DNA of 64,000 nt, taken from Thermoplasmata archaeon (lineage in GTDB: Archaea > Thermoplasmatota > Thermoplasmata > UBA10834). The first letter of the stretch is position 1, and every line of letters starts with the position of its first letter. Shown here in pieces: positions 47,984-63,492 of this stretch. The stretch spans positions 19,895 through 83,894 of the forward strand of contig JBFESP010000006.1 in the NCBI GenBank assembly GCA_041548485.1, written 5' to 3'. The translations under genes were made by a program, and so were the position numbers. The notes beneath the pieces were generated by a model, which did no database searches, was not told where the DNA came from, and was given only the letters and a program-made list of their open reading frames with translations.

Positions 47984-48859
47984 TCAATCGCCTCCGTACA
48001 TCTCATTAGGCCCAAGATACTCCGGGTGGTCTCCTCGAAGGATGGTACGTGCCACGTAACATAGGTGGCAATCATCCGCGAACCTGTCCATCGGCAGCCC
48101 GACCCCAAGCTTTCGCACCAGCGCCGCCGGACCCCCTTCGATCAGTGCAGAAACCACAGGATGTTTCGACGGGTCGTACTCTTCGATGATGTCCTTCAGA
48201 CTTCTAGAGGCCGTGTCTCCGATGACTATGCCCTGGCATACATGGACCAGGCCAATGGGGTCGATATGGACCCGCCCAGGCGCTCTCAAGTCCTCAGGAC
48301 AGGACCCGAGTTCAGAAACCTCACGGGTGCAGTGGTCCCCCGCGAGTTTGTCCGAGGCACGACCTCTGAAATACAGCCCGCCATCAGCCCCCGCGCCTGC
48401 ATCTGGTTTGCACACCTCGATCACTCCGACCGGGATTCCGAGTCTTTCGGCGGCCTCAACGACCTCACGCGCCCTTCTATCGTCCGGGGAGAATCGGTGA
48501 TACTCATCATCGCTGATGCTCAGGTCCGAAACGCCGAGCTCTGCCAACGGGGCAAGCCACAGCTCCGCGTCCGCAACCGAGGTACCCCAATAGCCGTTGG
48601 TGACGATTCCGACATCGAACCCCATCGAGCGGGCCGCTCTCACCCCTTCCAGGACTACAGGGTAGTAGAGGAATGGTTCGCCCCCCTCGAAGTAGATCGT
48701 CCTGACGCTCTCGATCTCGCTCGCCTGGGCTAGCAACCTGCGAATCATCTCGATCGTCATCGTCGCCTCAAACTGGGGGCTAGCCCACACGAAGCAGTGG
48801 TCGCACTCCCTGTCGCAACGATACGTCGTTAGCAGGTGTACGCCTTCCAAGCCCGACAT
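47984..48859 (-). CDS. Radical SAM enzyme, small, function unknown
   Basis: CxxxCxxC cluster (CDRECDHC) near the N-terminus at the internal ATG (MSGLEGV), and GGEP glycine-rich motif. 291 aa with no SPASM/twitch extension. The listed 5' extension overlaps the upstream gene and is unlikely. Confidence 0.75.
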   Translation of the reverse strand: MSGLEGVHLLTTYRCDRECDHCFVWASPQFEATMTIEMIRRLLAQASEIESVRTIYFEGGEPFLYYPVVLEGVRAARSMGFDVGIVTNGYWGTSVADAELWLAPLAELGVSDLSISDDEYHRFSPDDRRAREVVEAAERLGIPVGVIEVCKPDAGAGADGGLYFRGRASDKLAGDHCTREVSELGSCPEDLRAPGRVHIDPIGLVHVCQGIVIGDTASRSLKDIIEEYDPSKHPVVSALIEGGPAALVRKLGVGLPMDRFADDCHLCYVARTILRGDHPEYLGPNEMYGGD

Positions 48860-48941
48860 GATGACGAACCACCGTCGACTGAATACGCCATACGCTATGA
48901 GGCGGATATTGAAAGGGTTTGCCGCGTTCCTTCGAATCCGC

Positions 48942-50276
48942 TCACGCCTCGTCTCGCAGGTCCACACCCAGGTCTCGCATGCTCCGCTTGTACGAGCGGA
49001 TGATGGTCGAGTACTCCTTCGTGGGTCGGCGCTTCTCGGCGTCCCAGCACTCGTACAGAGACTTGCCGAGTGGCGGCTTGAGAAGCCTGTTCTCATATTT
49101 CCCGAGAAGCTTCTTCGCGAGCGTGTTGGCATCCTGTAGCTTCATGCCAGCGACGGCATGACCTACCTCCGCGGATATCCGCGGCTCGACCGGCGTCGTC
49201 CTATCCTCATACCTGTTGGACGCGATGCCCACGGATTCTATGGATAGCCCAGAGGTGACGGCCGCGGTGACCGATGCGGACGTCTCGAACAGAGCCATCG
49301 GTGTGCACGGGCCTGCCGAGGCGTAGTTCAGGTTGATGCTTAGCATATTGGAGTTGCGGGTGACTGCCTGACCGGTCGAGCTGATGACCCAGAGCAGTTC
49401 CCTGCAGCTGCTGGAGACGTACCTGAGGTGCAGTGGGAACGGCAGCAGCCAGCTCGCCTGGTATGTGAGTAGACCCATCATGTGATGGGCCACATTGGAG
49501 ACCGCCGTCCCCTCGGGACCGCCTGAGTACCCACCAAGGAGGGGGCCGAAGCACATGCCGATGGGACCTCCCATAGACAACGCGACCGCAGCTTTGTTCA
49601 GACGCGCGAAATCCACCTTCATGGGGTCCATGCAGCAGATCAAGTAGCCGTCCGACGGTCTCATGCCGTACCTCGGGTGCAGGGCCGCTGCGAAAGCGAT
49701 ATCCGACTCAGCCGTCGAGAGCGAGTTCATTATCGGTATGCCCTCGCGGCCTACGCGGTTGCAGGCCTCCCTTGCAAGGACTGCGTTTCTCATCGCTCCG
49801 AGTACTTCCAGCGGAGAAGCGGGCCTGATCCTCATTCCTCCGACACGCGTGAGAGCTGGCGTCGTGATCGCGTTCGTCTCTGGAATCTCCGCGTAGCCCT
49901 CAACGAGGGTCATGAACGACCTGTCACTCGACGCGGAACCACCGCCCGCACCTAGAAAGCACCATGGGGGGGTCTTGTCGCCAACCTTCCTCGATCTGAA
50001 GGTCTTCCTGTCGCGTCCCTCCCCGAGCTCGAGCGCGTCTGGGGCGGTCCTGATGGCCTCCCTTACCTCCTGGTCGGTGTACGATATGACTCGGGCGCTG
50101 CTTGTGCAGTAAGCACCGACATCGACGAGCAGCTCGACCGCCGCCTTGAAGATGTCGTCCACCAGGGAGCCGTCGTTCGGGATGGGGTTCTTCGGGTCGT
50201 ACTTGATGTCGTACTTCTTGACGACCTCCTGGACCTTCGGGGCGAAGCTGCGAAGCTGGTAGTCAGTCTCGCTCAT
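48942..50276 (-). CDS. MtmB-family (monomethylamine methyltransferase-like) protein lacking pyrrolysine
   Basis: Full-length collinearity with MtmB (for example KVGDKTPP, LGGYSGGPEGTAVSNVAHHMMGLLTYQASW, YASAGPCTPMALFETSASVTAAVTSG). Continuous ORF with no in-frame UAG. The region aligning to the Pyl loop reads GREGIPIMNSLS and is 2-3 residues shorter. Start at the internal ATG (MSETDYQ) with a GAAGGAAA RBS. Confidence 0.75.
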   Translation of the reverse strand: MSETDYQLRSFAPKVQEVVKKYDIKYDPKNPIPNDGSLVDDIFKAAVELLVDVGAYCTSSARVISYTDQEVREAIRTAPDALELGEGRDRKTFRSRKVGDKTPPWCFLGAGGGSASSDRSFMTLVEGYAEIPETNAITTPALTRVGGMRIRPASPLEVLGAMRNAVLAREACNRVGREGIPIMNSLSTAESDIAFAAALHPRYGMRPSDGYLICCMDPMKVDFARLNKAAVALSMGGPIGMCFGPLLGGYSGGPEGTAVSNVAHHMMGLLTYQASWLLPFPLHLRYVSSSCRELLWVISSTGQAVTRNSNMLSINLNYASAGPCTPMALFETSASVTAAVTSGLSIESVGIASNRYEDRTTPVEPRISAEVGHAVAGMKLQDANTLAKKLLGKYENRLLKPPLGKSLYECWDAEKRRPTKEYSTIIRSYKRSMRDLGVDLRDEA

Positions 50277-50328
50277 CGGTTTTCCTTCGAGAGCCCGCCC
50301 CATCACGTCGAGGAACTGGACCAAGACG

Positions 50329-51003
50329 TCACTTCCCCTTGGCCAACTTGTTCGCCAGCTTGATCGTCGTGGCTGCGTCCTCTCCCCAGCCATCGGCCCC
50401 GATCTCGTCGGACCACTCGCCGGTCGTCGGACCGCCTCCGACCATCACTGCGAACTTCTTCCTTTCCTTCAGCGAGACCAGATAGTCCACGATGTCCTTC
50501 TGCGACCCTATGGTGCTGGACATCAACGCAGAGGCACCGATTATCTTCGCGTTGGAGCGCTTGGCCTCCTCCACGAATGTCGTCGTCTTGACATCGACAC
50601 CCAGGTCGATGACGTTGAAGCCGTTCGCCAATAGCATGTTGGATACGATGTTCTTGCCGATCTCGTGCACATCTCCCTGGACCGTCCCAATCGCCACGGT
50701 GGCCTTGGAGACCATCTCGCCCTTCGGGACCAGAGGCAGGAGCAGGGCCATCGCCGTCTTCATCGCGTCGGCGGCAAGCATCAACTCGGGGAGGTATATC
50801 TCCATCTTCTCGAACTTGTCTCCCACCTTCTCGATCGCAGGCACCAATCCCTTCTCAATCGCCTTCAGCGGGTCAACCTTCGCCCTTATCGCATCCTTCG
50901 CTGACTTCTCGGCAGCCGAAGAATCGAAGGACAGGATGGCGTCGCCGAGCGACTTGAACATCTTCTTCTCATCCATGGGGTTCCTTCCTAGCAGCGCGGA
51001 CAC
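50329..51003 (-). CDS. Cobalamin-binding corrinoid protein (MtmC/MtbC/MttC-like)
   Basis: B12-binding N-terminal cap plus Rossmann domain with DxHxxG (GDVHEIGKN). 224 aa. Confidence 0.9.
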   Translation of the reverse strand: MSALLGRNPMDEKKMFKSLGDAILSFDSSAAEKSAKDAIRAKVDPLKAIEKGLVPAIEKVGDKFEKMEIYLPELMLAADAMKTAMALLLPLVPKGEMVSKATVAIGTVQGDVHEIGKNIVSNMLLANGFNVIDLGVDVKTTTFVEEAKRSNAKIIGASALMSSTIGSQKDIVDYLVSLKERKKFAVMVGGGPTTGEWSDEIGADGWGEDAATTIKLANKLAKGK

Positions 51004-51129
51004 AGGGGCCGCGCTGGCTGGGAATGAAGCACTGACGATTTAAAGGGTTCTCTCGGAGGATATCATGACCTATGACCGGGTCGCCACTGGAACGGGCGAC
51101 AGACGGCGGGGATAGGGCCGTTGGAGCCG

Positions 51130-52572
51130 TCAGAACTCGTCTATTACCTTCTTGAGTGCTGACAGTCTGGCACCATCGAGTTTCTCCGGCTGGTGCTCGG
51201 ACAGCATCTTCTGAGCCTTCTCCTCTGCGACATCCATCAGGTCTCTCTTGCCGCTTTCCTCCCACGATTCGTACGAGGACATGTCCCACAATGTCGACAT
51301 GTAGAAGTCCTTCACATGCTTCACCGTGTGCATCTCGCCCAGATAGTTCCTGCCGATGCCGACCTTCTTTATCAGATCCAGCGAGACAGACTCGTCGTTG
51401 ACCTCGATGTCTCTGTTGGAGTTCAGCACGAGAGCCACAATCTCGTTGTCTATGACCATCTGAGCGAAGGAGAGCAGGGTCGAGCCGTCCGCAAGGCCTA
51501 TACCGTTCATTATCTCACAGCCGACAGCGGCCAGCGGCGGAGAGAGGACGGCGTTCTCGACGGACTGTCTCAGTCCTGGAGTCCTCGCACTGCCCCCCAT
51601 TCCGCCAGCGGAACATGGCACGTCCAGATACTTCGCCATCTCCACATTGCCGATGCTCAGCATTATCGTCTCCGGGGCGCCCGAGTTGTAGGCGCCCGTC
51701 TTGGGGTCCATGCTAGACTGAACTGAGCCGTACAGGAACGGCGCACCAGGCTCGTGCGCCTGCATGGCACAGGCAAGGGCCATGGTCTCAGCATGGTTGA
51801 CGACGAGGCTGCCGGCCACCGTGGCGGGGCCGCTCAGGCCCATGCTCGCCATGCCGGTTATGTGCACAGGAACGTGGTTCTCGGCCCAGACCATCGCAGC
51901 GTCGGTCGCTCCGCCGTCAAGGACGAGCGGGGATATCGTGCACACCATCGCGGAGATATAGTGACGTTTCCTGAGCTCCTCCTCGGATCCGACGACGGCC
52001 GCCGCCATCTTGACCTGAGCCCGAGCCTCCTCGGGGGTCGTCGTGGACTCGGTCTCGATATGCTTGGTCGTGTTCTCCATGCCAACCTTCAACCCCTCGA
52101 GGACGTGTGTCTTCGAGGAGATGTCATGCGCCACCACCATCGGCTCGAATATGCTCAGGTACGGCAGCGCGTCGCCCAGAACGGCCGTCTTTCGGATGTC
52201 CTCGAGGACGGATTGACGACGGCTCTTGGTCCTAGGGTCCCACACGGCGATGCCACAGCCGTCGGTGGTGTAGTAGTGATGACGGCGGTCCAGAGGCAGG
52301 TCGTAGTCCTTCGTCCGTCCAGCGAGAACGATGCTAGACGGCGCCTTGGACATCAGTGAGTTGACGAGATCAGGGGAGAACTTCACGACGTTCGTCTTGT
52401 CGTCAACGGCTGCCCCCGCACGTTTCAACGAGTCTCGCGCAACCGGACTCATCACCCTGATTCCAGTGTTCTCAAGAATATCCAGCGCGGAATCATGTAT
52501 CTTCTTCCTATCCGAGTCCTTCATGAAGGACCTTGGCTCTCTCACCTTGAATCTGTCTGCAAACATTGACAT
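51130..52572 (-). CDS. MttB-superfamily (trimethylamine methyltransferase-like, COG5598) methyltransferase, non-pyrrolysine
   Basis: 480 aa. N-terminal pattern typical of the MttB family (KIHDSALDILENTGIRV...LKRAGAAVD...VKFSPDLVNSLMSKAPSSI) and TIM-barrel-length body. No in-frame UAG. AGGAGG RBS. Confidence 0.85.
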   Translation of the reverse strand: MSMFADRFKVREPRSFMKDSDRKKIHDSALDILENTGIRVMSPVARDSLKRAGAAVDDKTNVVKFSPDLVNSLMSKAPSSIVLAGRTKDYDLPLDRRHHYYTTDGCGIAVWDPRTKSRRQSVLEDIRKTAVLGDALPYLSIFEPMVVAHDISSKTHVLEGLKVGMENTTKHIETESTTTPEEARAQVKMAAAVVGSEEELRKRHYISAMVCTISPLVLDGGATDAAMVWAENHVPVHITGMASMGLSGPATVAGSLVVNHAETMALACAMQAHEPGAPFLYGSVQSSMDPKTGAYNSGAPETIMLSIGNVEMAKYLDVPCSAGGMGGSARTPGLRQSVENAVLSPPLAAVGCEIMNGIGLADGSTLLSFAQMVIDNEIVALVLNSNRDIEVNDESVSLDLIKKVGIGRNYLGEMHTVKHVKDFYMSTLWDMSSYESWEESGKRDLMDVAEEKAQKMLSEHQPEKLDGARLSALKKVIDEF

Positions 52573-52709
52573 CCCGATACCTCCTGCTGTAGGAAGCCCA
52601 GGCCCCGGAGGCCGGCTTCAATAGAAAAGGGTTTTCAGATAGCTTCATGACCGTGGAGCGGTGCAACGGCGAAGGATTAAGTAGTTGCCGCATGGCCCAT
52701 TGCACACGT

Positions 52710-54143
52710 TCAAACGCCGACCATCTTCTCGTAGTCTGCGATGATCCCGTCACCCTTGCGCTTCATGTCACCGTCCAACGAAGGGACCTCATGCTCCCGG
52801 AGTATCCTCTTGGCGATCTCCTTCGCCTCGGGGACCATGGCATCGGAGTATGTCCTCTCCCAGTCCTTCTTCGCCTCATCGAAGAAGAACAGCTCCTTCT
52901 TGAAGTTGCGGGCTGTGTGGACATGGCTGAGGAAGGTGTTGCCGTGGCCCACCTGCTTCACGACATCCAAAGCGATCGTCTCGTCGGAGATCTCGAACCG
53001 CCTCATGAAACCACGGACATGCTCCCAGATGCGTGATTCGATGACTGCCTGCTCGTATGACACGCCCTTGACGGCGTCAATCCCGCCGATACCGGAGATG
53101 AGATCGGAGTTGCCCATGGAGCTCAAAGCCACGCCCATGACCTCCGAGAACGATTGTGGGATGCCCGGCGTTTCCTTGTCGTTTATACCCCACTCGCCCA
53201 CCATCGACGGCAGACCGTATCTTCTCGCCATCTGACCGAGCCCAGCGGCGATGATGCAGTGCTCCGGAACCATGTAGTTGATTACTCCTGTCTTCATGCT
53301 GATCGGGGCCGATGATGAGCAGTATATGTGCGGGGAACCAGGAGCGGCGAACTGGGTGATCACCAGGCTTGCCAGGTTCTCAGTGTTCGCGTTCGATATC
53401 GTCCCCGCCATGGTGACGGGACTTGACCCCCCCGGGAGGGACATAGACATCGACATTATCGGTATGCCCGCCCTCACCAGCTCGACCATCCCTTCGACGG
53501 CTCCACCCTCGTACGAGAGGGGAGCGATCGAGCAACAGATCACGGAGAACAACGGCCGCTTCCTCAGCTCCTCCTCGCTCCCTGCGATGAGGGCTCCGAG
53601 CTCCACCTGCTTGCGCGAATCGGCAGCGCCCATCACGGAAACGCCGTTCACGTGCTTCGTCGTGTTCTGCATGGCCGTCCAGAGCTCATGAAGACCGTGT
53701 GAGATCTGAGGCACCTCGTTCGCCGTGATGGACGTCCACAGGAAATCGACCCCATCGAGCCCATCGCCTAGACGAATGAAATCGGCTATGTCCTTCCTAG
53801 TCGACGGCTTCTTCTCGCCCGTCTCCATATCCCTGATGTACACTCCCAGGCCGGAGGTGGCCACGAACGGAGGGCCGGATACCGGGATCTCCATATCGTG
53901 CTTCGGATCCCTGGCACAAAGACGTATGCTCCTGGGTGCCTTCATCAGAGCCTCATTGACCATTTCCTCAGGTATCTTCGCGATCATCTTCGTGAAATCA
54001 ACTTCCGCACCGGAATCGCTGAGCATCTTCAGCGTCACGTCGCTGCGTATGAGCATGCCTATCTCCTGTAGGCTCTTCAGGCTGGATTCGTGTATCAGAT
54101 CCTGCTCATCCCCGGACAGAAAAACAAGTCTCGCTACCGCCAT
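52710..54143 (-). CDS. MttB-superfamily methyltransferase paralog, non-pyrrolysine
   Basis: 477 aa from the internal ATG (MAVARLVFLSGDEQDLIHESSLKSLQEIGMLI...). Same family as the adjacent gene but divergent. TATA CCCATATTATAGGGG lies about 60-75 nt upstream. Confidence 0.85.
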   Translation of the reverse strand: MAVARLVFLSGDEQDLIHESSLKSLQEIGMLIRSDVTLKMLSDSGAEVDFTKMIAKIPEEMVNEALMKAPRSIRLCARDPKHDMEIPVSGPPFVATSGLGVYIRDMETGEKKPSTRKDIADFIRLGDGLDGVDFLWTSITANEVPQISHGLHELWTAMQNTTKHVNGVSVMGAADSRKQVELGALIAGSEEELRKRPLFSVICCSIAPLSYEGGAVEGMVELVRAGIPIMSMSMSLPGGSSPVTMAGTISNANTENLASLVITQFAAPGSPHIYCSSSAPISMKTGVINYMVPEHCIIAAGLGQMARRYGLPSMVGEWGINDKETPGIPQSFSEVMGVALSSMGNSDLISGIGGIDAVKGVSYEQAVIESRIWEHVRGFMRRFEISDETIALDVVKQVGHGNTFLSHVHTARNFKKELFFFDEAKKDWERTYSDAMVPEAKEIAKRILREHEVPSLDGDMKRKGDGIIADYEKMVGV

Positions 54144-54202
54144 GTTACTGCACTCCCCATCGATGCCCCGTTCGTCAACGGGCGTGTCCGCAATCCTCAA
54201 CC

Positions 54203-54214
54203 CCTATAATATGG
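54203..54214 (-). promoter_or_regulatory. TATA box for MttB-cluster transcript
   Basis: CCATATTATAGG on the minus strand, directly abutting the upstream TTG codon. This favours the internal ATG at 54143 as the start. Confidence 0.4.
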
Positions 54215-54272
54215 GTTTGCGTGGTCCGGGGTGATGTGTTTAAGACCTTTTCCCAAATGTGAGAATTCAGAT

Positions 54273-55202
54273 TCAAGCGAGGGGCTTCGTGTCTGGCGTG
54301 GGGGCCTTCTCCTGCAGCCCCTTCATCAGGACGATGTATAGGCCGCCGATGACCAGGATTGAACCGACCACTATCCATCTACCGGGCATCTCGTCAGGAA
54401 GGAGGAAGTACGCCAGCACCGAAGCGCCAATCGGCTCGGCAAGAAGGGATGTCGAGACGATGTGCGCAGGGAGCGTTTTGAGGGCGAAGTTGAACATCGT
54501 GTGGCCGAAGATGGTCGGAACGACCGCCAGTAGGACGAACAGCGAGAGCTCGCGATGCGACGACACTGCGATGACATCGCCCACGATGACGGCTCCGACG
54601 AACAGCATGGCTGCGCATATCAGATAGACCGTGAAGACATACGTTCCCAGTGACACCTTCTGCCTCGCCCGCCTCCCGGAGAGGAGGTAGATGCCCGCAC
54701 AAATACCGCCGAGGAATGCCAGCGTGTTCCCCGTCATGTTGGTCCCCCCCAGCTGTAAGTCTGCCACCGAGATGACACACACGCCAAGAAACGCGACGAC
54801 TATGCCTATCGCCGCTATACGACGCACACGCTCACCGAGCACGAAATGCGACACGCCCGCCACGAACATAGGGTGGGCCGTCACAAGCACGACGGATGTC
54901 GCCACCAGCGTGAGGCTGAGGGACGCAATCCAGAGGCCGAAATGAAACGCCAACGCGGTGGCGCTGACGAAGATGAGGACCCACTCGCGCAGCGGGAGGG
55001 AGCGGAGTTCGGTGAGTCCACGGCTCCTTGCGACGAACGGAAGGAGCATGGCGCACGTGAAGAAGAGTCTGTAGAACGTGATCACGAAAGGCGTCGACTC
55101 ACACCACTTGATCAGTATCGGTGCGAACGAGATCGATACCATCGCGACGACTACCGCGGTGTAGGCTCTGGATACCTCGCTGCCAGCCACTATACGCGTC
55201 AC
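54273..55202 (-). CDS. EamA/DMT-family transporter
   Basis: 309 aa. Ten TM helices and duplicated EamA domains. Immediately upstream of and co-oriented with the methyltransferase genes. Confidence 0.75.
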   Translation of the reverse strand: MTRIVAGSEVSRAYTAVVVAMVSISFAPILIKWCESTPFVITFYRLFFTCAMLLPFVARSRGLTELRSLPLREWVLIFVSATALAFHFGLWIASLSLTLVATSVVLVTAHPMFVAGVSHFVLGERVRRIAAIGIVVAFLGVCVISVADLQLGGTNMTGNTLAFLGGICAGIYLLSGRRARQKVSLGTYVFTVYLICAAMLFVGAVIVGDVIAVSSHRELSLFVLLAVVPTIFGHTMFNFALKTLPAHIVSTSLLAEPIGASVLAYFLLPDEMPGRWIVVGSILVIGGLYIVLMKGLQEKAPTPDTKPLA

Positions 55203-55242: not shown

Positions 55243-55743
55243 TCAGTAGATCGTGACGCCTCTGACGCCCCTCGCCTGGCGGATCAGAGGGATGATCTCA
55301 GAAGGCACCATGCTGTCGGTGACGATGAACAGCTTGGGTTCCTCGGAGGTCATGGGGTCGTCCACTATAGCCTGCCGGATCGATATGTTCGACCGCATCA
55401 GAATCTCCGCCACGCCTGAGATGATGCCAGGCTCGTGGGCATTCACCGGGACGATCTCGATGGCGCTCCACCCCATCGCCGAGGCCGCGTTCTTCAGGTG
55501 GTTCGTGGGCAGAAGCTGCGAGAAGAACTTCTGCAGCGTCGAATCGCCCTTTATCGTCTCAACCGTAGACTTCACCACTCTCCGGTCAACGCCCGCTGCT
55601 CTCGCAAGTGCTGAATCTGCTATCTGTACGTCGCCGCAATAGACACGGTCCCCGTGTATGCGGAGGCCGTACTTCAGCAGATACCGGGCGACCTTCGCCT
55701 GGGACGGGTACTTCTCGAAGTAATTGGCTATTCTATCCCACAT
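55243..55743 (-). CDS. ACT-domain regulatory protein (COG2150-like predicted regulator of amino-acid metabolism)
   Basis: 166 aa. N-terminal HTH-like region and C-terminal ACT-like fold. Divergently arranged with the aro operon. Confidence 0.5.
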   Translation of the reverse strand: MWDRIANYFEKYPSQAKVARYLLKYGLRIHGDRVYCGDVQIADSALARAAGVDRRVVKSTVETIKGDSTLQKFFSQLLPTNHLKNAASAMGWSAIEIVPVNAHEPGIISGVAEILMRSNISIRQAIVDDPMTSEEPKLFIVTDSMVPSEIIPLIRQARGVRGVTIY

Positions 55744-55894: not shown

Positions 55895-56680
55895 ATGGTT
55901 GGAAAGACGATCAGGCTGAGACGCATCTTCGACCAGAAGAGCGGGAATACCGTGATCGTGCCGATGGATCACGGCATCTCCCTCGGTCCGGTCAAGGGTT
56001 TGGCGGACATTAGGAGCACGGTCGACAGACTCGCAGAAGGCCGAGCCTCTGCGGTAGTGGTCCACAAAGGCCTGGTCCCATATATCGGCACTGCCGTAGG
56101 AGCTCCGCTGGGACTAATCGTCCACATATCCGCCAGCACATCGATGTCCCCCGACCCCAACGCGAAGGTGTTGGTGGCAAGCGTCGACGCGGCGGCCGCG
56201 CTCGGGGCGGACGCGGTCTCGATCCACTGCAACATCGGAAGTGACACCGAGAACGTAATGGTTTCCGATTTCGGGATGGTCTCGGACAGATGCGGCGAAC
56301 TGGGCATGCCACTCTTGGCGATGTGCTACCCCAGGGGCAAGAACGTCAAGGACCAGTTCGATGTGGACGCTGTCAAGCATGTCGCGAGATTGTCCGCCGA
56401 GCTCGGCGCCGACGTGGTGAAGACGAACTACACGGGTTCGATCGACACCTTCAAGGAGGTCGCCAACGGAACGCCAGTGCCGGTGGTCATCGCCGGCGGC
56501 CCGAAGATGGATTCCGACATGGACCTCCTCAAGATGGTGAGCGACGCCATGACAGCCGGCGCCCGTGGCGTCTCCATCGGCCGGAACGTCTTCCAGCACG
56601 ACGACGTGGCCATGATCACGAGAGCCATCGGAAAGGTTGTTTTCGAGGGGGCAGCCCCCGAGGATGCTTATAGGCGGTGA
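55895..56680 (+). CDS. aroA': 2-amino-3,7-dideoxy-D-threo-hept-6-ulosonate (ADH) synthase (AroA', DhnA-type aldolase)
   Basis: Class I aldolase fold with Schiff-base Lys region (ADVVKTNY). Family of MJ0400. First gene of the aro operon. Confidence 0.8.
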   Translation: MVGKTIRLRRIFDQKSGNTVIVPMDHGISLGPVKGLADIRSTVDRLAEGRASAVVVHKGLVPYIGTAVGAPLGLIVHISASTSMSPDPNAKVLVASVDAAAALGADAVSIHCNIGSDTENVMVSDFGMVSDRCGELGMPLLAMCYPRGKNVKDQFDVDAVKHVARLSAELGADVVKTNYTGSIDTFKEVANGTPVPVVIAGGPKMDSDMDLLKMVSDAMTAGARGVSIGRNVFQHDDVAMITRAIGKVVFEGAAPEDAYRR

Positions 56681-57716
56681 TCCCCTGGTCGGCCGTCAGG
56701 TCTGGATCGGGGCGATCTTCCAGCCAAACAGGGAGAGCAGGAAGAAGATCGTCCTATCCGCTTTGGAAGTAGGATTCGACACGATAGTTCTCGACAAGAG
56801 GGACTCAGCGTTCACTGAGCTCGGGAGGTTCAGAGCCATCACTCTTTCTGGGAGCAGCTTCACGGAGGACGGAAGAGCCGTTGGGAAGCTTGTGGAGATA
56901 GTCAAGAAGGAGGACGAGCTGAAGGCGAAGAAGTTGACTGATGAAGAGGACCACGTGGTAATCTCCGCGAATGACTGGAAGGTGATCCCTCTTGAGAATC
57001 TCATCGTTCATTTCCAGGGTAGTCGTGCCAAGCTACTCATGGTCGCAAGGACGATAGAAGAAGTGAAGCTGTTCTTCGAGACCATGGAGCGCGGGGCGGA
57101 CGGTGTCCTCTTCGCACCCAAGAGGGTTGAGGACCTGGGCAGGCTGCGCAAGCTGGTCGAGAAGGAGTCACCCAAGCTCGACTTGAAGGAGGGGAAGATA
57201 ACCGTCCTCAGGCAGCTGGGGCTCGGGGACCGGGTCTGCATCGACACATGTTCGGTACTGCGTATCGGCGAGGGGATGCTGATAGGCAACCAGTCATCAT
57301 GCATGTTCCTCATCCACTCTGAGACCCTCGAGTCGGAGTACGCAGCTTCGAGACCGTTCAGGGTGAACGCTGGCCCAGTCCACGCATACATATTGATGCC
57401 TGACGGAACCACGAGATACCTGTCAGAGCTCCGCGGAGGAGAGGAGGTGCTGGTGGTCGACTCCGGGGGACACACCAGAACGGCTATCGTCGGGAGGACG
57501 AAGGTTGAGAGCAGACCGCTGCTCCTGATAGAGGCCGAAGTGGACGGCTCCAAGTACTCCACCATCGTCCAGAACGCCGAGACCATACGAGTGTACTCCA
57601 GGGGAAAGGTCGTGTCAGTCTCGAAACTGAAGGTGGGGGATCCCATCCTGCTGAGGTTGGAGAAGGGTGGACGCCACTTCGGCATGTACGTGGATGAAAC
57701 CATACAGGAGAGGTGA
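56664..57716 (+). CDS. aroB': 3-dehydroquinate synthase type II (AroB')
   Basis: Similarity to archaeal DHQ synthase II (QVWIGAI...KKIVLSALEVGFDTIVL). Start chosen at MLIGGDP. Confidence 0.8.
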   Translation: MLIGGDPLVGRQVWIGAIFQPNRESRKKIVLSALEVGFDTIVLDKRDSAFTELGRFRAITLSGSSFTEDGRAVGKLVEIVKKEDELKAKKLTDEEDHVVISANDWKVIPLENLIVHFQGSRAKLLMVARTIEEVKLFFETMERGADGVLFAPKRVEDLGRLRKLVEKESPKLDLKEGKITVLRQLGLGDRVCIDTCSVLRIGEGMLIGNQSSCMFLIHSETLESEYAASRPFRVNAGPVHAYILMPDGTTRYLSELRGGEEVLVVDSGGHTRTAIVGRTKVESRPLLLIEAEVDGSKYSTIVQNAETIRVYSRGKVVSVSKLKVGDPILLRLEKGGRHFGMYVDETIQER

Positions 57717-59209
57717 TGATGACCCTCGTTGTCGCTTCTCTCGTCGAGAGAGGCATTGCCGGAGTCGCTCGCTCGTCAAAGGAGGCCTTTGCAGCGGGAG
57801 CGGACGCGGTCGAGATCCGCCTGGACCACATACGCGGTCTTGAGCGGAAGACGGGGCTGCTGGATGAGGCGCGCTCTGCGATTGACGGACCGGCCATCGC
57901 TACCCTTCGCTCGGCTCGAGAGGGAGGCCTCTCACGATGCACAGGTGCCAACAGAGCACGGTTGATGGCCACGGTCCTAGATTCCGGGTTCGACTACGTG
58001 GACCTCGAGCTGGTCATGGACAGGAAGCTTCTGGAATACCGCAGGGGCAGACCACGTGGACCGAAGGTGATCGGATCATACCACTTCCGGCGCCCGGCTA
58101 CGCGATCCGAGATAAGAGGACGGCTCGAACGGGCCTGCGGGACGGCAGACATAGGGAAGGTGGCCGCACCCTGCAACCACGCTGGTCACGCGATCGCGAT
58201 CGCGGACGTTGGGTTGGAGTTCTCGAGGAAGAAGCGTGTGTTCGCCGTAATGGGAATGGGTGTCCAGGGGCAGCTGACTCGTGCGTGCGCCAATGGTATC
58301 GGTTCCGAGCTCGTATACGCATGCCTCCCCGGCAGCCCTGCGGCACCAGGTCAGCTCGACGTCGTTCTCCAGTCAGATCTGCTGCGTAAGGAATCCGTCG
58401 TTCTCGGACTCGTCGGGCATCCTTTGACGCACTCAGTGTCCAAGCCCATGCATGAGGCAGCCCTCCGCAGCGTCGGCCTCAAGGGCATCTACATGCCCCT
58501 CGATGTGCCTCCCGGAGGCATGGGCCGGAGGGCGGTCACGACGCTGTTCAAGATCGGCTTCACCGGGCTCAATGTGACCATCCCGCACAAGCGGAAGGCT
58601 TTCGATATCTGCGACGACCACCGCCCGTCCGCTGCATCTACAGGCGCCGTCAACACGCTCGGATGGACGAACGGCAAGCTTGTGGGAGAAAACACAGATG
58701 TACTCGGGCTAACAAAGCTCATTGACGCTAAAAAGGTACGAACGAAAGGGGTCGATTCGCTAGTGGTCGGAGCCGGAGGAGCTGCTCGCGCAGCGTGCCG
58801 GGTCCTCTTGGACGGTGGGTCTGCCGTTACTGTCGTGGCGAGAAGAGACGGCAGGGCACGCGCTCTCGCTAAGTCCTGCGGGGTCCTGGCCGGGTCGTTC
58901 TCTTCCGCGTCGGCAGGGACAGGCATCTTTGGCATCGTGGTCAATGCAACGCCCGTGGGGACACGCGGGACACGACTGGAAGGAGTGACCATTCCCGAGA
59001 GCTTGCTGGAAGGTAGGCCGGTGTTTATCGACCTGGTATACAATCCCCCCGTGACAGGAAGCATGAGGCTGGCGCGGGACAGAGGCTGCGTCGCACACGG
59101 GGGATTGGAGATGCTCGTCGGTCAGGGGGCGGAGGCGTTCGGCATATGGACAGGATACGCTCCGGACCCAAGCGTGATGAGAGCGGCCGCCAGGAGGGCT
59201 TTGGCATGA
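57713..59209 (+). CDS. aroDE: Bifunctional 3-dehydroquinate dehydratase (type I) / shikimate dehydrogenase
   Basis: N-terminal AroD-I region and C-terminal AroE with the NAD(P)-binding GAGGAARA motif. Confidence 0.85.
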   Translation: MMMTLVVASLVERGIAGVARSSKEAFAAGADAVEIRLDHIRGLERKTGLLDEARSAIDGPAIATLRSAREGGLSRCTGANRARLMATVLDSGFDYVDLELVMDRKLLEYRRGRPRGPKVIGSYHFRRPATRSEIRGRLERACGTADIGKVAAPCNHAGHAIAIADVGLEFSRKKRVFAVMGMGVQGQLTRACANGIGSELVYACLPGSPAAPGQLDVVLQSDLLRKESVVLGLVGHPLTHSVSKPMHEAALRSVGLKGIYMPLDVPPGGMGRRAVTTLFKIGFTGLNVTIPHKRKAFDICDDHRPSAASTGAVNTLGWTNGKLVGENTDVLGLTKLIDAKKVRTKGVDSLVVGAGGAARAACRVLLDGGSAVTVVARRDGRARALAKSCGVLAGSFSSASAGTGIFGIVVNATPVGTRGTRLEGVTIPESLLEGRPVFIDLVYNPPVTGSMRLARDRGCVAHGGLEMLVGQGAEAFGIWTGYAPDPSVMRAAARRALA

Positions 59210-60075
59210 GGACGGGAGAGGCGGCCAGCAGGGGAGCAGCGACGATAGTGAACGCCATCGCCTCCGGAAAGGGTGCGGCCTTCGGCATCAGCCTCGAGGT
59301 CGATGCCCGCATCCAGCTCGAAACGGGCGACGGGCCAATAGACGTCGACGGACCGAAGGAGGGGGATGGGCTTGTGGTAGGCTGCATCAGAGCCGCGGCG
59401 TCGGCGACGGGGGCTGGCCCCGTCAGAGGAAAGGCCGTTATCAGGTCAGACATACCGATATCCAGAGGGCTGAAGAGCAGCAGTGCGGTCTCAAACGTAG
59501 TCGCCCTCGCCACGCTCAGAGCGGTCGGGAGGGACCTGAAAGACGATGCGCTTCTGAACATCGCGATCGATGAGTCCATGCGGGCGGGCGTGACGATCAC
59601 GGGAGCGTACGACGACGCTGCGGCATGTCATTTCGGGGGGCTCGTCGTGACAGACAACATATCCAGGACAGTCATCAAGAGGGGAGCGTTGGACCCGGAG
59701 CTCGCCGTCCTGATCCAGGTGCCGGAGGGGAGGATAGCGAAAAGCAGCGTCGACCCGGCCCGCTTCGCCGAGCAGAGCGAGGATTTCGAGAACGCGCTCG
59801 GCCTCGCCGTCAGGGGGGATTATCTTGAGGCCATGGCTCTGAACTCGAGGGCCACGGCCAAGGCGCTAGACCTATCCGACGAAGCGCCAGCTGCCGCAAG
59901 GAAGGCGGGAGCCCTTGCCGCCGGAATAACTGGAACAGGACCTGCGAGCGTCGCCCTGTGCAGGCGCGATAGGATCAAGGATGTCGAGAAGGCGTTGGCC
60001 GCCTTCGACGGCAGCGTCATCCATGCCAGCCTGAACTCGACGCCGTCCAGGGAGGTGGTTCCGCGGCTATTGTAG
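59206..60075 (+). CDS. aroK: Shikimate kinase, archaeal GHMP-kinase type
   Basis: GHMP motif region (PISRGLKSSSAVSNVVA) and an N-terminus matching the archaeal SK (ATIVNAIASGKGAAFGISLEV). Confidence 0.85.
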   Translation: MRTGEAASRGAATIVNAIASGKGAAFGISLEVDARIQLETGDGPIDVDGPKEGDGLVVGCIRAAASATGAGPVRGKAVIRSDIPISRGLKSSSAVSNVVALATLRAVGRDLKDDALLNIAIDESMRAGVTITGAYDDAAACHFGGLVVTDNISRTVIKRGALDPELAVLIQVPEGRIAKSSVDPARFAEQSEDFENALGLAVRGDYLEAMALNSRATAKALDLSDEAPAAARKAGALAAGITGTGPASVALCRRDRIKDVEKALAAFDGSVIHASLNSTPSREVVPRLL

Positions 60076-61337
60076 TCCGGTCGTCGACGGCAAGGGGCAC
60101 GGTCACAGCACCGCCCTCGAAGTCCTACACTCACAGAGCCATGGTCCTCGGGGCGCTGACGAGGAACAGGTTCACGCTGAAGAGTCCATTGTTGTCCGAC
60201 GACACGACGGCCACCCTCGACGCTCTGGCATCTATCGGGACGGACGCCGATGTCCGGTCAGGGGGCCATATAAGACTGACATGTCACGAGCTCAAGTCAC
60301 CGGGAAGAGTGATCGATGTCAGGAACTCAGGGACGACCATCCGGTTGATGAGCGGGATAGCATCCCTGCTCGATACGCCGATCACATTGACCGGCGACGC
60401 CAGCCTCATCAGGCGACCGATGGCGCCGCTCGTGGACGCCCTCGGCCAGCTCGGTGCCAGCTGTGCATACATCGGCCAGCCCGGAAGGCCTCCCCTCAGG
60501 ATCACAGGGCCCATCACCAAGGCCGAGGCGGAGATCGACGGTGGCGTCAGCTCGCAGTTCGTCTCCTCGCTTCTCGTAGCATGCACTCAGAAGGCGTCAT
60601 CGACGAAGTTGAGAGTGAATGGGACCATCACTTCCCGACCCTACGTGGACATAACCCTTGAGATGCTTGCGCAGTTCGGCGCGAGGGTCGATGAAGGCCC
60701 AACGGGCTTCGACATGCCGGGCAGCCAGAGGCTCCGGAGGGACGATTACACGGTCCCAGGAGACTATTCGTCGGCGGCGTTCATGTTGGCTGCTGGAGCG
60801 GTCACCGACGGTGCTGTGACTGTCAGACGGCTGGACGCCGAATCAGCGCAGGGAGACAAGGCGATACTTGAACACCTCGACCGCTTCGGCGCGGATGTTT
60901 CGCGCGCCGCACACACGGCGACTGTGAGAGGGGGCAGGCTCGTGGGCGCCGAGATCGACGTCGGCGATACCCCTGACCTGTTCCCGGTGCTCGCCGTGGT
61001 GGGGGCTGTGGCAGAAGGGAAGACTGTGCTCAGAGGGGGGGTGAACCTGAGGGCGAAGGAGAGCGACCGTATCGCAACGACTACGAAGTTCCTCCAGGAC
61101 ATGGGTGCGAGGATAAGACCTATGGAAGACGGGTGCGAGATCATCGGCGTGCCGAAGCTGGCAGGGGCCAGGGTGGACACCCAGGGGGACCACAGGATTC
61201 TTATGGCTGCAACTGTTGCTGCCCTGGTATCTGGCACCGAGACAGTCATCGAGGACGAGGAGTCCTTCAAGGTGTCGTATCCCGGCTTCATCAGGGACCT
61301 GCACCAGCTGGGATGTCGTGTGGAGGTGAGGAAATGA
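60069..61337 (+). CDS. aroA: 3-phosphoshikimate 1-carboxyvinyltransferase (EPSP synthase)
   Basis: Full EPSPS fold. The conserved N-terminal PPSKSYTHRA motif is encoded upstream of the first canonical start codon (ATG 60141). A 5' boundary at ATT 60069 is proposed. See findings. Confidence 0.85.
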   Translation: MVVRSSTARGTVTAPPSKSYTHRAMVLGALTRNRFTLKSPLLSDDTTATLDALASIGTDADVRSGGHIRLTCHELKSPGRVIDVRNSGTTIRLMSGIASLLDTPITLTGDASLIRRPMAPLVDALGQLGASCAYIGQPGRPPLRITGPITKAEAEIDGGVSSQFVSSLLVACTQKASSTKLRVNGTITSRPYVDITLEMLAQFGARVDEGPTGFDMPGSQRLRRDDYTVPGDYSSAAFMLAAGAVTDGAVTVRRLDAESAQGDKAILEHLDRFGADVSRAAHTATVRGGRLVGAEIDVGDTPDLFPVLAVVGAVAEGKTVLRGGVNLRAKESDRIATTTKFLQDMGARIRPMEDGCEIIGVPKLAGARVDTQGDHRILMAATVAALVSGTETVIEDEESFKVSYPGFIRDLHQLGCRVEVRK

Positions 61338-62410
61338 ATATCATCGGATCGGCTTACAAGGTGTGCATATTCGGCTCGAGCCATGGTCCATTCGTGGGGG
61401 GCAGCGTCCAGGGCTGCCCGCACGGGGAGAAGATCTCCACAACCGCCATACAGATCGAGCTTGACCGGAGAGCGCCCGGCAAGGGGCCGGTGTCGACTCC
61501 CAGGAGTGAGAGAGACAGGATAGAGATCGTCTCCGGACTGCACAACGGAAGGGCTACGGGAGCTCCTATAGTCGGGCTCGTGAAGAACCGCGACTGCGAC
61601 TCGTCGGCGTACGACGCTTTCAGGAGGGTTCCGAGGCCCGGACACGCAGACTATCCTGCGCTCGTCAAGTACGGCGGCAGCAACGACCACCGCGGGGGAG
61701 GGCAGTTCTCCGGCAGAATGACCGCGGGGCTCGTCTTCGCCGGTGCGGTGGCAAGACAGGTTCTGGAGAGGCGCAAGGTGAGAGTCCTCGCCCAGACGGT
61801 GCAGATCGGGAAGGTGAAGCTCGAGAAGCATGTGCCATTCAGTGCGGCGGAGAAACTGACCCGTAACAACGCCGTCTGCTGCGCGGACCGGGCGGTCGCC
61901 GAACGGATGAAGGATGAGATCGTGAAGGCGCACGAGGAGAAGGACAGCGTCGGCGGCGTCGTGCGCTGCACTGTGCTCGGAGTCCCAGTCGGAGTCGGCG
62001 AACCGTTCTTCGGGTCGATAGAGAGTTCTCTCTCAGCCATGATGTTCTCGATACCAGGCGTCAAGGGCGTAGAGTTCGGGGCCGGATTCGCATCTGGGGC
62101 GTTGCGAGGAAGCGAGAACAACGACCCTTTCATAGTCCGAAACAAGAAGATAGCCACGAAGTCGAACAACGCCGGAGGCATACTGGGCGGGCTCTCCACG
62201 GGCATGCCCATAGAATTCAGGGTGGCATTCAAACCGACATCGTCGATCGCTAAGCCACAGATGAGCGTGGACATCGAGGCGATGAAGCCCATCGAACTCG
62301 TCGTCAGTGGAAGACACGACCCGTGCATAGTGCCGAGAGCAGTGCCAGTGGTCGAGAACTCCGCAGCGGCGTGCACGCTGGATCTGATGCTCCAGGGGGG
62401 TTTCATCTGA
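61334..62410 (+). CDS. aroC: Chorismate synthase
   Basis: MNIIGSAYKVCIFGSSHG start (ATGA overlap with the aroA stop). Conserved chorismate synthase signatures. Confidence 0.95.
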   Translation: MNIIGSAYKVCIFGSSHGPFVGGSVQGCPHGEKISTTAIQIELDRRAPGKGPVSTPRSERDRIEIVSGLHNGRATGAPIVGLVKNRDCDSSAYDAFRRVPRPGHADYPALVKYGGSNDHRGGGQFSGRMTAGLVFAGAVARQVLERRKVRVLAQTVQIGKVKLEKHVPFSAAEKLTRNNAVCCADRAVAERMKDEIVKAHEEKDSVGGVVRCTVLGVPVGVGEPFFGSIESSLSAMMFSIPGVKGVEFGAGFASGALRGSENNDPFIVRNKKIATKSNNAGGILGGLSTGMPIEFRVAFKPTSSIAKPQMSVDIEAMKPIELVVSGRHDPCIVPRAVPVVENSAAACTLDLMLQGGFI

Positions 62411-63492
62411 CGAAGGTCGAACTCGACTCGCTGCGCGAGGAGATCACACGGGTGGACATATCCATCCTGTCGCTCCTGGCGAGACGCATGGAGGCCGCCC
62501 AGGAGATCGGCCTCACCAAGACGAAGGACGGCGCGGAGGTCAGGGATGCGTCCCGCGAGGAGGCGGTGGTGAGGGACTTCGCAGAGAGGGCGAGAGTCCT
62601 GGGCCTCGACGAGGGGATGGCGACGACCATAGCCAACACGATCATCGAGGAGGCGGTCCGGACCCAGCTCGAGCAGGACGTGGGGCACCTACAGGGGAAG
62701 AGGATCGTCATCATCGGGGCCGGACGAATGGGTGCATGGGCCGCACGTTTCGCCTCCAATCGGGGCGCCGCAGTCTCAGTGCACGATCCGAGAGGCACCC
62801 TTGACGGCTACGAGAACCTGCAATCGCCCGAAGACGGGGCGGGGGACGCCGACTTCGTCATCATCGCCAGTCCTCTCGGGACAGCGAAGGAAGACTTGCG
62901 GGCCCTGTTCTCGGCGAAGCCCTCGGGCATCATCTTCGACCTCTGCAGCGTGAAATCCTACCTGAAGGACGTCCTACGGGAGGGAGTGGCGAAAGGTTTC
63001 AGGATCACCAGCGTACATCCGATGTTCGGGCCCGGTGCCATCACGCCGAGGGGCAAGAATGTGCTTGTCTGCAGCTGTGGCTGTGGTGAGGCGGATGCCG
63101 CGGCCAGGCAGTTGTTCGAGAACGAAGGAGCCATCGTCACTGATGTACCCATTGACGGCCACGACAGGCTCATAGCCCATGTCCTCGGGGCCCCTCACAT
63201 ATGCGCTCTTGTATTCGGCAGAGCCGTCTCGAAGTCGGGACTGTCGCCCAAGGATCTCGCCACGGTTCATGGACCGTCGTTCGCGGCGTTATGCGCGCTG
63301 GCAGGAAGCATATCGAGAGAGAGCAGACGCGTGTATCACGATATTCAGAAGCTGAACCCGCACACAGCGGAGGTGATCCGATCCATCGAGCAGGCGCTTG
63401 ACGAACTCAGGAACGCCTCGCTGGACGATGACCCTGGGAGGTTCGCGAGGATCATGGACGATGAGAGAGACTTCTTCGGAGGCTGGTCGTGA
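62371..63492 (+). CDS. tyrA: Chorismate mutase (AroQ) / prephenate dehydrogenase (TyrA) fusion
   Basis: CM helix (LDSLREEITRVDISILSLLARRMEAAQEIG) followed by the TyrA Rossmann (IVIIGAGRMG). The 5' boundary is ambiguous: GTG 62371, ATG 62323, or a CTG overlapping the aroC stop. Confidence 0.8.
   Translation: MHAGSDAPGGFHLTKVELDSLREEITRVDISILSLLARRMEAAQEIGLTKTKDGAEVRDASREEAVVRDFAERARVLGLDEGMATTIANTIIEEAVRTQLEQDVGHLQGKRIVIIGAGRMGAWAARFASNRGAAVSVHDPRGTLDGYENLQSPEDGAGDADFVIIASPLGTAKEDLRALFSAKPSGIIFDLCSVKSYLKDVLREGVAKGFRITSVHPMFGPGAITPRGKNVLVCSCGCGEADAAARQLFENEGAIVTDVPIDGHDRLIAHVLGAPHICALVFGRAVSKSGLSPKDLATVHGPSFAALCALAGSISRESRRVYHDIQKLNPHTAEVIRSIEQALDELRNASLDDDPGRFARIMDDERDFFGGWS

Follow-up and report, generated by a model that had tools for sequence, protein, structure and literature searches.

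Pyrrolysine-free methyltransferases beside a corrinoid carrier: a probable methyl-transfer module in an uncultured Thermoplasmata archaeon

The window considered here is a 64,000-nt stretch of contig JBFESP010000006.1 (positions 19,895-83,894; assembly GCA_041548485.1) from a Thermoplasmata archaeon that GTDB places in UBA10834. On its minus strand, at 48942-54143, lie four genes that we regard as probably forming a corrinoid-dependent methyl-transfer module, in which three substrate:corrinoid methyltransferases (MT1) are served by one shared carrier, in an uncultured and probably non-methanogenic archaeon. The MT1 set comprises two paralogues of MttB and one enzyme resembling MtmB and MtqB, none of which contains pyrrolysine (Pyl). 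Each would have an N-methylated substrate of its own, most likely one of the quaternary amines, by analogy with MtxB/MtxC systems, and would pass its methyl group to the Co(I) form of the single carrier, giving methyl-Co(III). A second methyltransferase (MT2) encoded elsewhere would move the methyl group onward to an acceptor, and an ATP-dependent reductive activase, also encoded elsewhere, would repair cobalt that has been oxidised to Co(II). The acceptor is likely to be tetrahydrofolate or tetrahydromethanopterin rather than coenzyme M, and the methyl groups would feed the C1 pool of a non-methanogen. This reading rests on full-length alignments to the solved structures of MtmB, MttB and MttC and on a histidine-ligand (His-on) B12 motif in the carrier; the direction of transfer, the class of substrate, the sharing of one carrier and the acceptor are what we infer from there.

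Families were called at Pfam gathering scores and subtypes at NCBIfam model cut-offs, and gene limits were set from homologue alignments and from gene calls on identical contigs. Protein relatives came from a database of 5.8 billion proteins and from a library clustered at 50% identity, and related loci (given L numbers below) from a contig scan for relatives of the MtmB-like gene, with one genome per species. A preliminary description of this DNA had proposed six co-oriented minus-strand genes at 47984-55202. All six open reading frames (ORFs) are present, intact and uninterrupted, and nine independent metagenome contigs carry the same gene block with identical proteins. The families named in that description also stand, as all six proteins pass the Pfam gathering scores in a profile search.

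Three methyltransferases and one corrinoid carrier

The MtmB-like gene (48942-50324, minus strand) starts with TTG and encodes a probable substrate:corrinoid MT1 of 460 aa that scores 314 bits against PF05369, for which the cut-off is 25. It shares the fold family of MtmB from Methanosarcina barkeri (1L2Q/1NTH), with which it aligns end to end, ORF residues 29-477 facing residues 11-456 of the 1L2Q chain (E = 1.7e-69). The two differ in that identity is 33%, in that Pyl202 of the M. barkeri enzyme stands opposite a methionine (ATG) in the motif GIPIMNS, and in that the window gene has no in-frame UAG at the Pyl202 position, the mark of Pyl-dependent MtmB proper. With Met in place of Pyl202, activation of monomethylamine through a Pyl adduct is not possible in this enzyme. 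Loops rich in Met and Cys are present. Methionine occupies the Pyl column in every Thermoplasmata homologue and in those of the Bathyarchaeota loci L034, L036 and L038; the homologues of L040 and L041, also from Bathyarchaeota, have Leu, and the bacterial ones Leu, Ile, Val, Gly or His.

MttB-A (52710-54143) and MttB-B (51130-52572), both on the minus strand, are probable MT1 enzymes of 477 and 480 aa that are 31% identical to one another. The start of MttB-A is placed at the ATG at 54143, its ORF extending further, to a TTG at 54200. Both lie far over the PF06253 cut-off of 25 bits (229 for MttB-A, 287 for MttB-B) and below the 525 bits of TIGR02369, the equivalog model for the Pyl-dependent trimethylamine methyltransferase (362 and 394 bits, respectively). 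In alignments to the solved Pyl-containing MttB 7XCL (E = 5e-61 for MttB-A and 8e-56 for MttB-B), Ile of MttB-A and Gly326 of MttB-B stand opposite Pyl, and neither protein has Pyl where the M. barkeri enzyme has Pyl334. There is no in-frame TAG in any of the three methyltransferase reading frames, and with Met, Ile or Gly at the Pyl position all three are free of pyrrolysine, as had been claimed. Orthologues of MttB-A occur in L007, L009 and L064 at 78-96% identity, and homologues of MttB-B in many Thermoplasmata metagenome contigs at 55-100%.

Pyl-free members of the MttB superfamily act on glycine betaine (MtgB) and, according to the work of Ticak (2014) as cited in PMC13044021, on proline betaine, carnitine and γ-butyrobetaine. 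The two window proteins resemble MtgB in being Pyl-free members of PF06253 with a corrinoid protein beside them. They differ from it in that the Pyl-type MttB 7XCL gives both of them a higher score than MtgB does, and in that the glycine betaine site reported by Picking et al., Y97, R312, H348 and F356 (PMC13080624), is conserved in neither: none of the four residues is found in MttB-B (C, S, N, S) or in MttB-A (L, M, S, V). The lignin O-demethylase of Bathyarchaeia that is also named MtgB (PMC10989822) was rejected as a relative, as it is a protein of ~300 aa from an unrelated family.

The corrinoid (B12-binding) protein, of 215 aa (50329-50976, minus strand; PF02310, 86 bits, and PF02607, 71 bits), is the one cognate carrier in the cluster, in agreement with the preliminary description. 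Its closest solved structures are MttC 7XCN_M (E = 3.8e-46) and MtmC 3EZX, and the DxHxxG motif that provides the histidine ligand reads GDVHEIG, in alignment with GDIHSIG of MttC. Scores against the NCBIfam models TIGR02370 (198 bits for a cut-off of 215.3), MtgC (206 for 310) and MtbC (181 for 350) make the protein, as judged by sequence, a member of the MtxC family that is not placeable in a named subtype.

From the EamA transporter gene at one end of the six to the radical S-adenosylmethionine (SAM) gene at the other, the intergenic gaps measure 129, 137, 153, 4 and 82 nt. Of the short gaps spoken of earlier, the 4 nt between the carrier stop codon and the MtmB-like start stands, marking the sole tightly coupled gene pair of the cluster; the others, at 82-153 nt, are not uniformly short. 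The pairing recurs widely. Across the 57 related loci, drawn from Thermoplasmata, Bathyarchaeota and bacteria, 50 of 62 copies of the MtmB-like gene directly follow a corrinoid gene of the same orientation. The conserved core is the corrinoid gene followed by the MtmB-like gene, the sole constant neighbour pairing, and in the window lineage the two MttB paralogues join it.

About 30 of the 57 loci are from Thermoplasmata, among them RBG_13_57_23, RBG_19FT_COMBO_56_21 and the Slate River 'OBJ' genomes, with 71-94% identity in the MtmB-like protein. Bathyarchaeota account for nine: in six the identity is 43-55%, and the other three (L034, 54%; L036, 50%; L062, 36%, across the initial 214 residues alone) are more distant or match poorly. 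The bacterial loci stand at 31-41%. The best 120 protein relatives in the 5.8-billion-protein database, all of them close Thermoplasmata relatives, are 453-463 aa long and at least 76% identical, and the clustered library holds 938 representatives at E < 1e-3 and 219 at E < 1e-30. The block of EamA, MttB-A, MttB-B, corrinoid and MtmB-like genes is kept in L007, L009 and L064, the last being a complete 1.42-Mb genome (CP070736.1) syntenic with the window, at 73-96% identity. When the window is compared with L064 and L009, identity is 73-81% for the methyltransferases and the carrier, 82% for CarB and AroA', and 55-59% for AroDE and shikimate kinase, the MtmB-like protein being as conserved as CarB. 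Since their identity is near the level of CarB and AroA', the core genes are, by this sequence measure, functional and under strong constraint.

Other Thermoplasmata loci often have a more distant MttB gene (38-41% identity) in convergent orientation, 2-4 kb downstream of the corrinoid/MtmB-like pair. Those of the Gimiplasmatales type (L010-L025; for example, L011:6942-12099) carry a PAS-GAF-GAF histidine kinase gene upstream of the pair on the opposite strand, and downstream of it a gene for a DUF835 protein, followed by a HAD hydrolase gene and a convergent MttB gene.

Substrates, partners and alternative functions

The preliminary description had found neither an MT2 nor RamA in the window, and this was borne out. 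Pfam scans of the other large ORFs and tblastn with URO-D MT2, RACo activase and pterin-binding methyltransferase queries detected no URO-D MT2, no pterin-binding MT2 and no RamA/RACo activase in the 64 kb, within which the three-component set of MT1 and carrier, MT2 and activase is not complete. A candidate MT2 is found in two Danish Thermoplasmata genomes (L022:673-1566 and L023:675-1562). It is a methyl-H4folate:corrinoid methyltransferase (PF00809; NF005719, 270 bits for a cut-off of 259) whose gene and that of a second MtxC-like corrinoid protein point away from each other, some 9 kb upstream of the corrinoid/MtmB-like pair. Desulfobacterota loci have the homologues of the pair within a full set of genes, which encode a RACo activase, an MttB, a GntR regulator, the carrier, the MtmB-like protein, an ABC transporter and a URO-D MT2, from which it follows that the MtmB-like family does operate in complete methyl-transfer systems.

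Several points count against the proposed module. With no MT2 or activase in the window or in the fetched archaeal loci, bar the pterin methyltransferase of L022 and L023, the pathway is incomplete as seen, and the view extends over 64 kb, with the mcr and pyl status of the host's genome lying beyond it. Identity of the MtmB-like clade to Pyl-MtmB is only 33%, and to the 50%-cluster representatives beyond the clade it does not exceed 41%; to the Bathyarchaeota homologues of L034, L036 and L040 it is 44-54%. The sequences point to no particular substrate, and MttB-A and MttB-B keep none of the four MtgB residues. Finally, every gene but the MtmB-like one has its own promoter-like element (see below), so that co-expression would be an assumption.

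A biochemical precedent for the core pair is provided by MtqB of Methanococcoides methylutens Q3c (Kashyap et al. 2026), a non-Pyl MtmB homologue that methylates cob(I)alamin with tetramethylammonium and choline (PMC13044021). According to the same authors, non-Pyl MtmBs had long been known, with no assigned function before MtqB. The enzyme (459 aa) is encoded just downstream of MtqC (216 aa), an MtbC-like carrier, in a host that has several non-Pyl mttB and mtmB genes, and it draws on the general MtbA and RamA of that host, a precedent for shared parts (PMC13044021). The window likewise has a Pyl-free MtmB homologue directly 3' of a corrinoid gene, the protein lengths are near-identical, and MT2 and activase, which the Methanococcoides host encodes elsewhere, are not found beside the window pair either. 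There are differences, however. The window host is probably non-methanogenic, which makes coenzyme M an unlikely acceptor, two MttB paralogues stand beside the pair, and in a rough neighbour-joining (NJ) tree of the MtmB family, built without support values, the window clade is far from the Pyl-MtmB neighbourhood in which MtqB reportedly branches. In that tree, the window clade is sister to Bathyarchaeota sequences within a group of bacterial clades, and is distant both from M. barkeri MtmB and from its nearest non-Pyl relatives.

It is conceivable, if rather unlikely, that the pair is a true orthologue of MtqC/MtqB acting on tetramethylammonium and/or choline, with the MttB proteins taking downstream or related quaternary amines. 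The directly upstream carrier and the sizes of 215 and 460 aa would fit, as would Met at the Pyl position and the Met/Cys-rich loops, given the stress laid by the MtqB paper on conserved Met, Cys and aromatic ligand residues (PMC13044021); moreover, the nearest bacterial and Bathyarchaeota clades in the NJ tree adjoin choline/ethanolamine-kinase-like genes. Orthology sits poorly with the reported position of the MtqB clade near the Pyl-MtmBs, given the 33% identity between the window clade and M. barkeri MtmB, and with the different catabolic contexts of other family clades (PhnW/PhnX, HutH), which indicate that specificity varies. The comparison with MtqC/MtqB covered gene order and protein sizes, a limit that also counts against the shared-carrier module that we favour.

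Other relatives of the Pyl-dependent enzyme were also encountered. A profile built from the three library representatives closest to Pyl-MtmB gave matches in Methanomassiliicoccales, Asgard and Methanohalobium, and none from Methanococcoides. The Methanohalobium homologue P0481 was considered as an mtqCB-like pair and set aside, there being no carrier gene beside it. In the cultured methanogen Methanohalobium evestigatum (CP002069.1, L065:8001-9368), a non-Pyl MtmB homologue with Met at the Pyl column adjoins an iron/B12-type ABC transporter, with no corrinoid gene beside it. The Pyl-type motif GMxV-x-GPE is retained in four full-length MtmB homologues: P0457 and P0461 (Methanomassiliicoccales by NCBI name) and two members of the same clade from metagenomes, P0311 and P0450. 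At the Pyl column P0311 has Ile, P0461 has Val, and P0457 and P0450 have Lys. These proteins may represent recent losses of Pyl or read-through artefacts of gene calling.

Elsewhere in the family, the genes adjoining the MtmB-like gene differ from clade to clade. The corrinoid and MtmB-like genes have choline/ethanolamine-kinase-like genes (PF01633, PF01636) as neighbours in L040, L042, L043, L046, L048, L049 (8725-9945) and L051, loci that belong to Spirochaetota, Proteobacteria, Thermodesulfobacteriota (L051) and, in one case, Bathyarchaeota; in L049 and L051 the kinase gene stands between the two. Planctomycetota have tandem MtmB-like genes (L052:3818-9191 and L054:1710-5582) between PhnW, a 2-aminoethylphosphonate transaminase (498 bits), and PhnX, a phosphonoacetaldehyde hydrolase (329 bits); an aldehyde dehydrogenase gene is close by. 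The L059 contig, which begins at the first MtmB-like gene, has the same tandem pair followed by PhnX and aldehyde dehydrogenase. This context suggests anaerobic demethylation of N-methylated aminoethylphosphonates by the Planctomycetota pair. In Chloroflexota (L044, L047 and L050:11885-13444), a gene for HutH, a histidine ammonia-lyase (655-688 bits), adjoins the corrinoid and MtmB-like genes, so that the substrate of that clade could be an N-methylated histidine, hercynine for instance. Taken together, the neighbouring genes point to varied substrates across the MtmB-like family.

The clade with Met in place of Pyl in Thermoplasmata and Bathyarchaeota, which is 71-94% conserved and always paired with a carrier in Thermoplasmata, might have a substrate specificity new for corrinoid methyltransferases, for example an N-methylated aromatic amino acid or betaine, the methyl group passing to the folate or methanopterin pool via an unrecognised MT2 and activase. 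We put this forward tentatively; the aromatic example is prompted by the position of the MtmB-like gene, which repeatedly stands beside shikimate or TrpY genes in two phyla. In the window lineage, the block stands beside a TrpY-family regulator of 166 aa (55243-55743, minus strand; NF053754, 186 bits for a cut-off of 180), an unannotated ORF that the preliminary description does not list. No gene of the block is better conserved than this regulator, which is 89-91% identical to its counterparts in L064 and L009 and is transcribed away from a full archaeal shikimate operon at 55895-63492. In Bathyarchaeota (L036:981-11356 and L038:971-11356), the closest MtmB-like genes outside Thermoplasmata are co-oriented and ~130 bp after a complete AroA'-prephenate dehydrogenase operon, with no adjacent corrinoid gene, and the short L037 contig has the order aminotransferase, prephenate dehydrogenase, MtmB-like.

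A stronger version of this idea would tie the archaeal MtmB-like clade to aromatic amino acid metabolism as such, e.g. to demethylating N-methylated aromatic amino acids or betaines, instead of general quaternary-amine methylotrophy. The gene arrangements just described would be in its favour, as would the histidine ammonia-lyase adjoining a different clade in Chloroflexota. Most Thermoplasmata loci (L010-L035), however, have unrelated neighbours, the adjacency could be inherited synteny or chance, and there is no biochemical precedent, and we consider such a tie improbable.

Extent of the module and its transcription units

The preliminary description had treated all six genes as one system. 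In that account, the transporter would import the substrate and the radical SAM protein would be integral, for example in maturation or activation. The genes are indeed contiguous and co-oriented, but the two outer ones fit poorly. The radical SAM gene (47984-48859, minus strand; 291 aa; PF04055, 56 bits) is present only in the window, L002, L007 and L008 among the fetched loci, that is, in the closest relatives; it is found neither in the syntenic L009 and L064 nor in any other of more than 50 loci, and in L064 a gene for PpiC directly follows the MtmB-like gene, with no radical SAM gene between. The N-terminal ~116 residues of the protein resemble YydG (77 bits, for an NCBIfam cut-off of 300), and its match to PDB entry 8AI3 (E = 8e-15) covers residues 12-127 only, so that it resembles just the core of YydG-type peptide-modifying enzymes and falls short of the full-length match, at 300 bits or more, of a YydG-type peptide epimerase. 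A role as a PylB-like or activase partner was also considered and rejected, there being no such family match and no conservation of the gene. From its sequence and distribution, this gene is probably specific to the lineage and a neighbour of the module without being related to it.

The EamA/DMT transporter gene (54273-55202, minus strand; PF00892, 108 bits) begins 40 nt past the end of the TrpY-family regulator gene, an interval free of promoter-like motifs, and the transporter has weak NCBIfam similarity to the amino acid exporters YddG and RhtA. It travels with the methyltransferases in L007, L009 and L064, and is missing from every other fetched locus with the corrinoid/MtmB-like pair. On the strength of the spacing, the lack of a promoter-like element, the faint exporter similarity and the absence elsewhere, we assign EamA with moderate confidence to the trpY unit or the adjacent aromatic amino acid operon, which it faces, and not to the methyltransferase module. 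The methyltransferase module is one of four genes, not six.

A motif search of the window brought out a further feature, which in one respect lends something to the six-gene account. A promoter-like motif, AAACCCTTT, lies upstream of MttB-B (52626-52634, minus strand), and sister motifs, also on the minus strand, precede the corrinoid gene (GAACCCTTT, 51042-51050), the radical SAM gene (48912-48920) and MttB-A (AAACCCATA, 54210-54218). All four share the form AAACCC(T/A)T, 52-66 nt before the start codons. The upstream motif of the radical SAM gene is thus the one seen before MttB-B and the carrier gene. Exact copies of AAACCCTTT number two in the whole window, both intergenic within the cluster. 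All four sites are conserved in L007 and the radical SAM site in L008, and in L009 the MttB-A, MttB-B and corrinoid sites are found, the last in a degenerate form (GAATCCTTT). The motifs would be BRE/TATA-like elements (B recognition element and TATA box) of archaeal promoters. If so, the cluster would comprise several transcription units with similar promoters rather than one operon. An extra element, GGTCATGA, precedes the motif of MttB-B and that of the corrinoid gene by 11-13 nt, and the element and motif together may be BRE/TATA elements and the site of a common regulator. A promoter and terminator scan of the window used a sigma-70 model and, the host being an archaeon, was uninformative. 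In the whole 64 kb, a tRNA scan gave no tRNA gene and an Rfam scan no family match at gathering score. With the radical SAM gene absent from syntenic loci and EamA placed as it is, a single undescribed system of six genes is improbable despite the shared motif.

The least credible alternative takes the MtmB-like and MttB genes for normal Pyl-dependent mtm/mtt genes whose stops were misread, or for pseudogenes in decay; it has the family names as its sole support and is excluded for this cluster by ORFs of 460, 477 and 480 aa that are uninterrupted and free of in-frame TAG, by Met at the Pyl column of all Thermoplasmata homologues, by the full length of more than 120 protein clusters related to the MtmB-like enzyme (76-93% identity) and by conservation at the level of housekeeping genes. 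Stop codon usage agrees with this, since TAG ends 11 of the 53 window genes (21%; TGA ends 40 and TAA 2), which does not suggest an organism that decodes Pyl.

Relation to reported systems and significance

The claim that no such system had been described in archaea overstated the case. Zinke et al. reported non-Pyl MttB genes together with MtbC/MttC genes in RBG-16-68-12 and UBA10834, with no MtaA, pylBCDS or mcr (bioRxiv 10.1101/2020.03.09.984617). Rasmussen et al. recorded mttB, mttC, mtmB and mtgB in Ca. Gimiplasmatales, for which they suggested methylotrophic acetogenesis while pointing out that MT2 was missing (PMC11264602). The cluster represents a kind of system that had been reported from the lineage before and that has gained a biochemical precedent with MtqB (PMC13044021). 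The Gimiplasmatales (UBA10834) and RBG-16-68-12 gene sets are alike in comprising the same families, in uncultured Thermoplasmata that lack mcr, with MT2 missing (PMC11264602; bioRxiv 10.1101/2020.03.09.984617), and genomes from those studies (RBG_13_57_23, RBG_19FT_COMBO_56_21 and the OBJ isolates) are among the loci compared here. They differ in that, in the passages drawn on here, they are reported by annotation only, with no mention of the coupling between carrier and MtmB-like genes or of the residue at the Pyl position of mtmB. The window lineage is further set apart from them by two tandem MttB genes upstream of the pair, beside trpY-eamA. The mlp gene clusters (PMC10418091) were rejected as a counterpart, as they represent a different, URO-D-based system.

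As the families, the architecture and their presence in the lineage are already in the literature, the value of the present locus is incremental, not conceptual. Anoxic sediments contain MttB and MtmB homologues without Pyl in great number; the MtmB family alone comprises at least 219 clusters at 50% identity (E < 1e-30). Only one non-Pyl MtmB, MtqB, has an assigned function. Against this background, the locus offers three MT1 enzymes and a carrier as a compact, strongly conserved set to express, taken from uncultured Thermoplasmata that are abundant and lack mcr. Should the more speculative proposal of a new specificity with an unrecognised MT2 and activase be true, it would define a non-methanogenic archaeal methylotrophy. 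More generally, the substrates, once known, would show which methylated nitrogen compounds are diverted from methanogens, and would put the proposed archaeal methylotrophic acetogenesis to the test.

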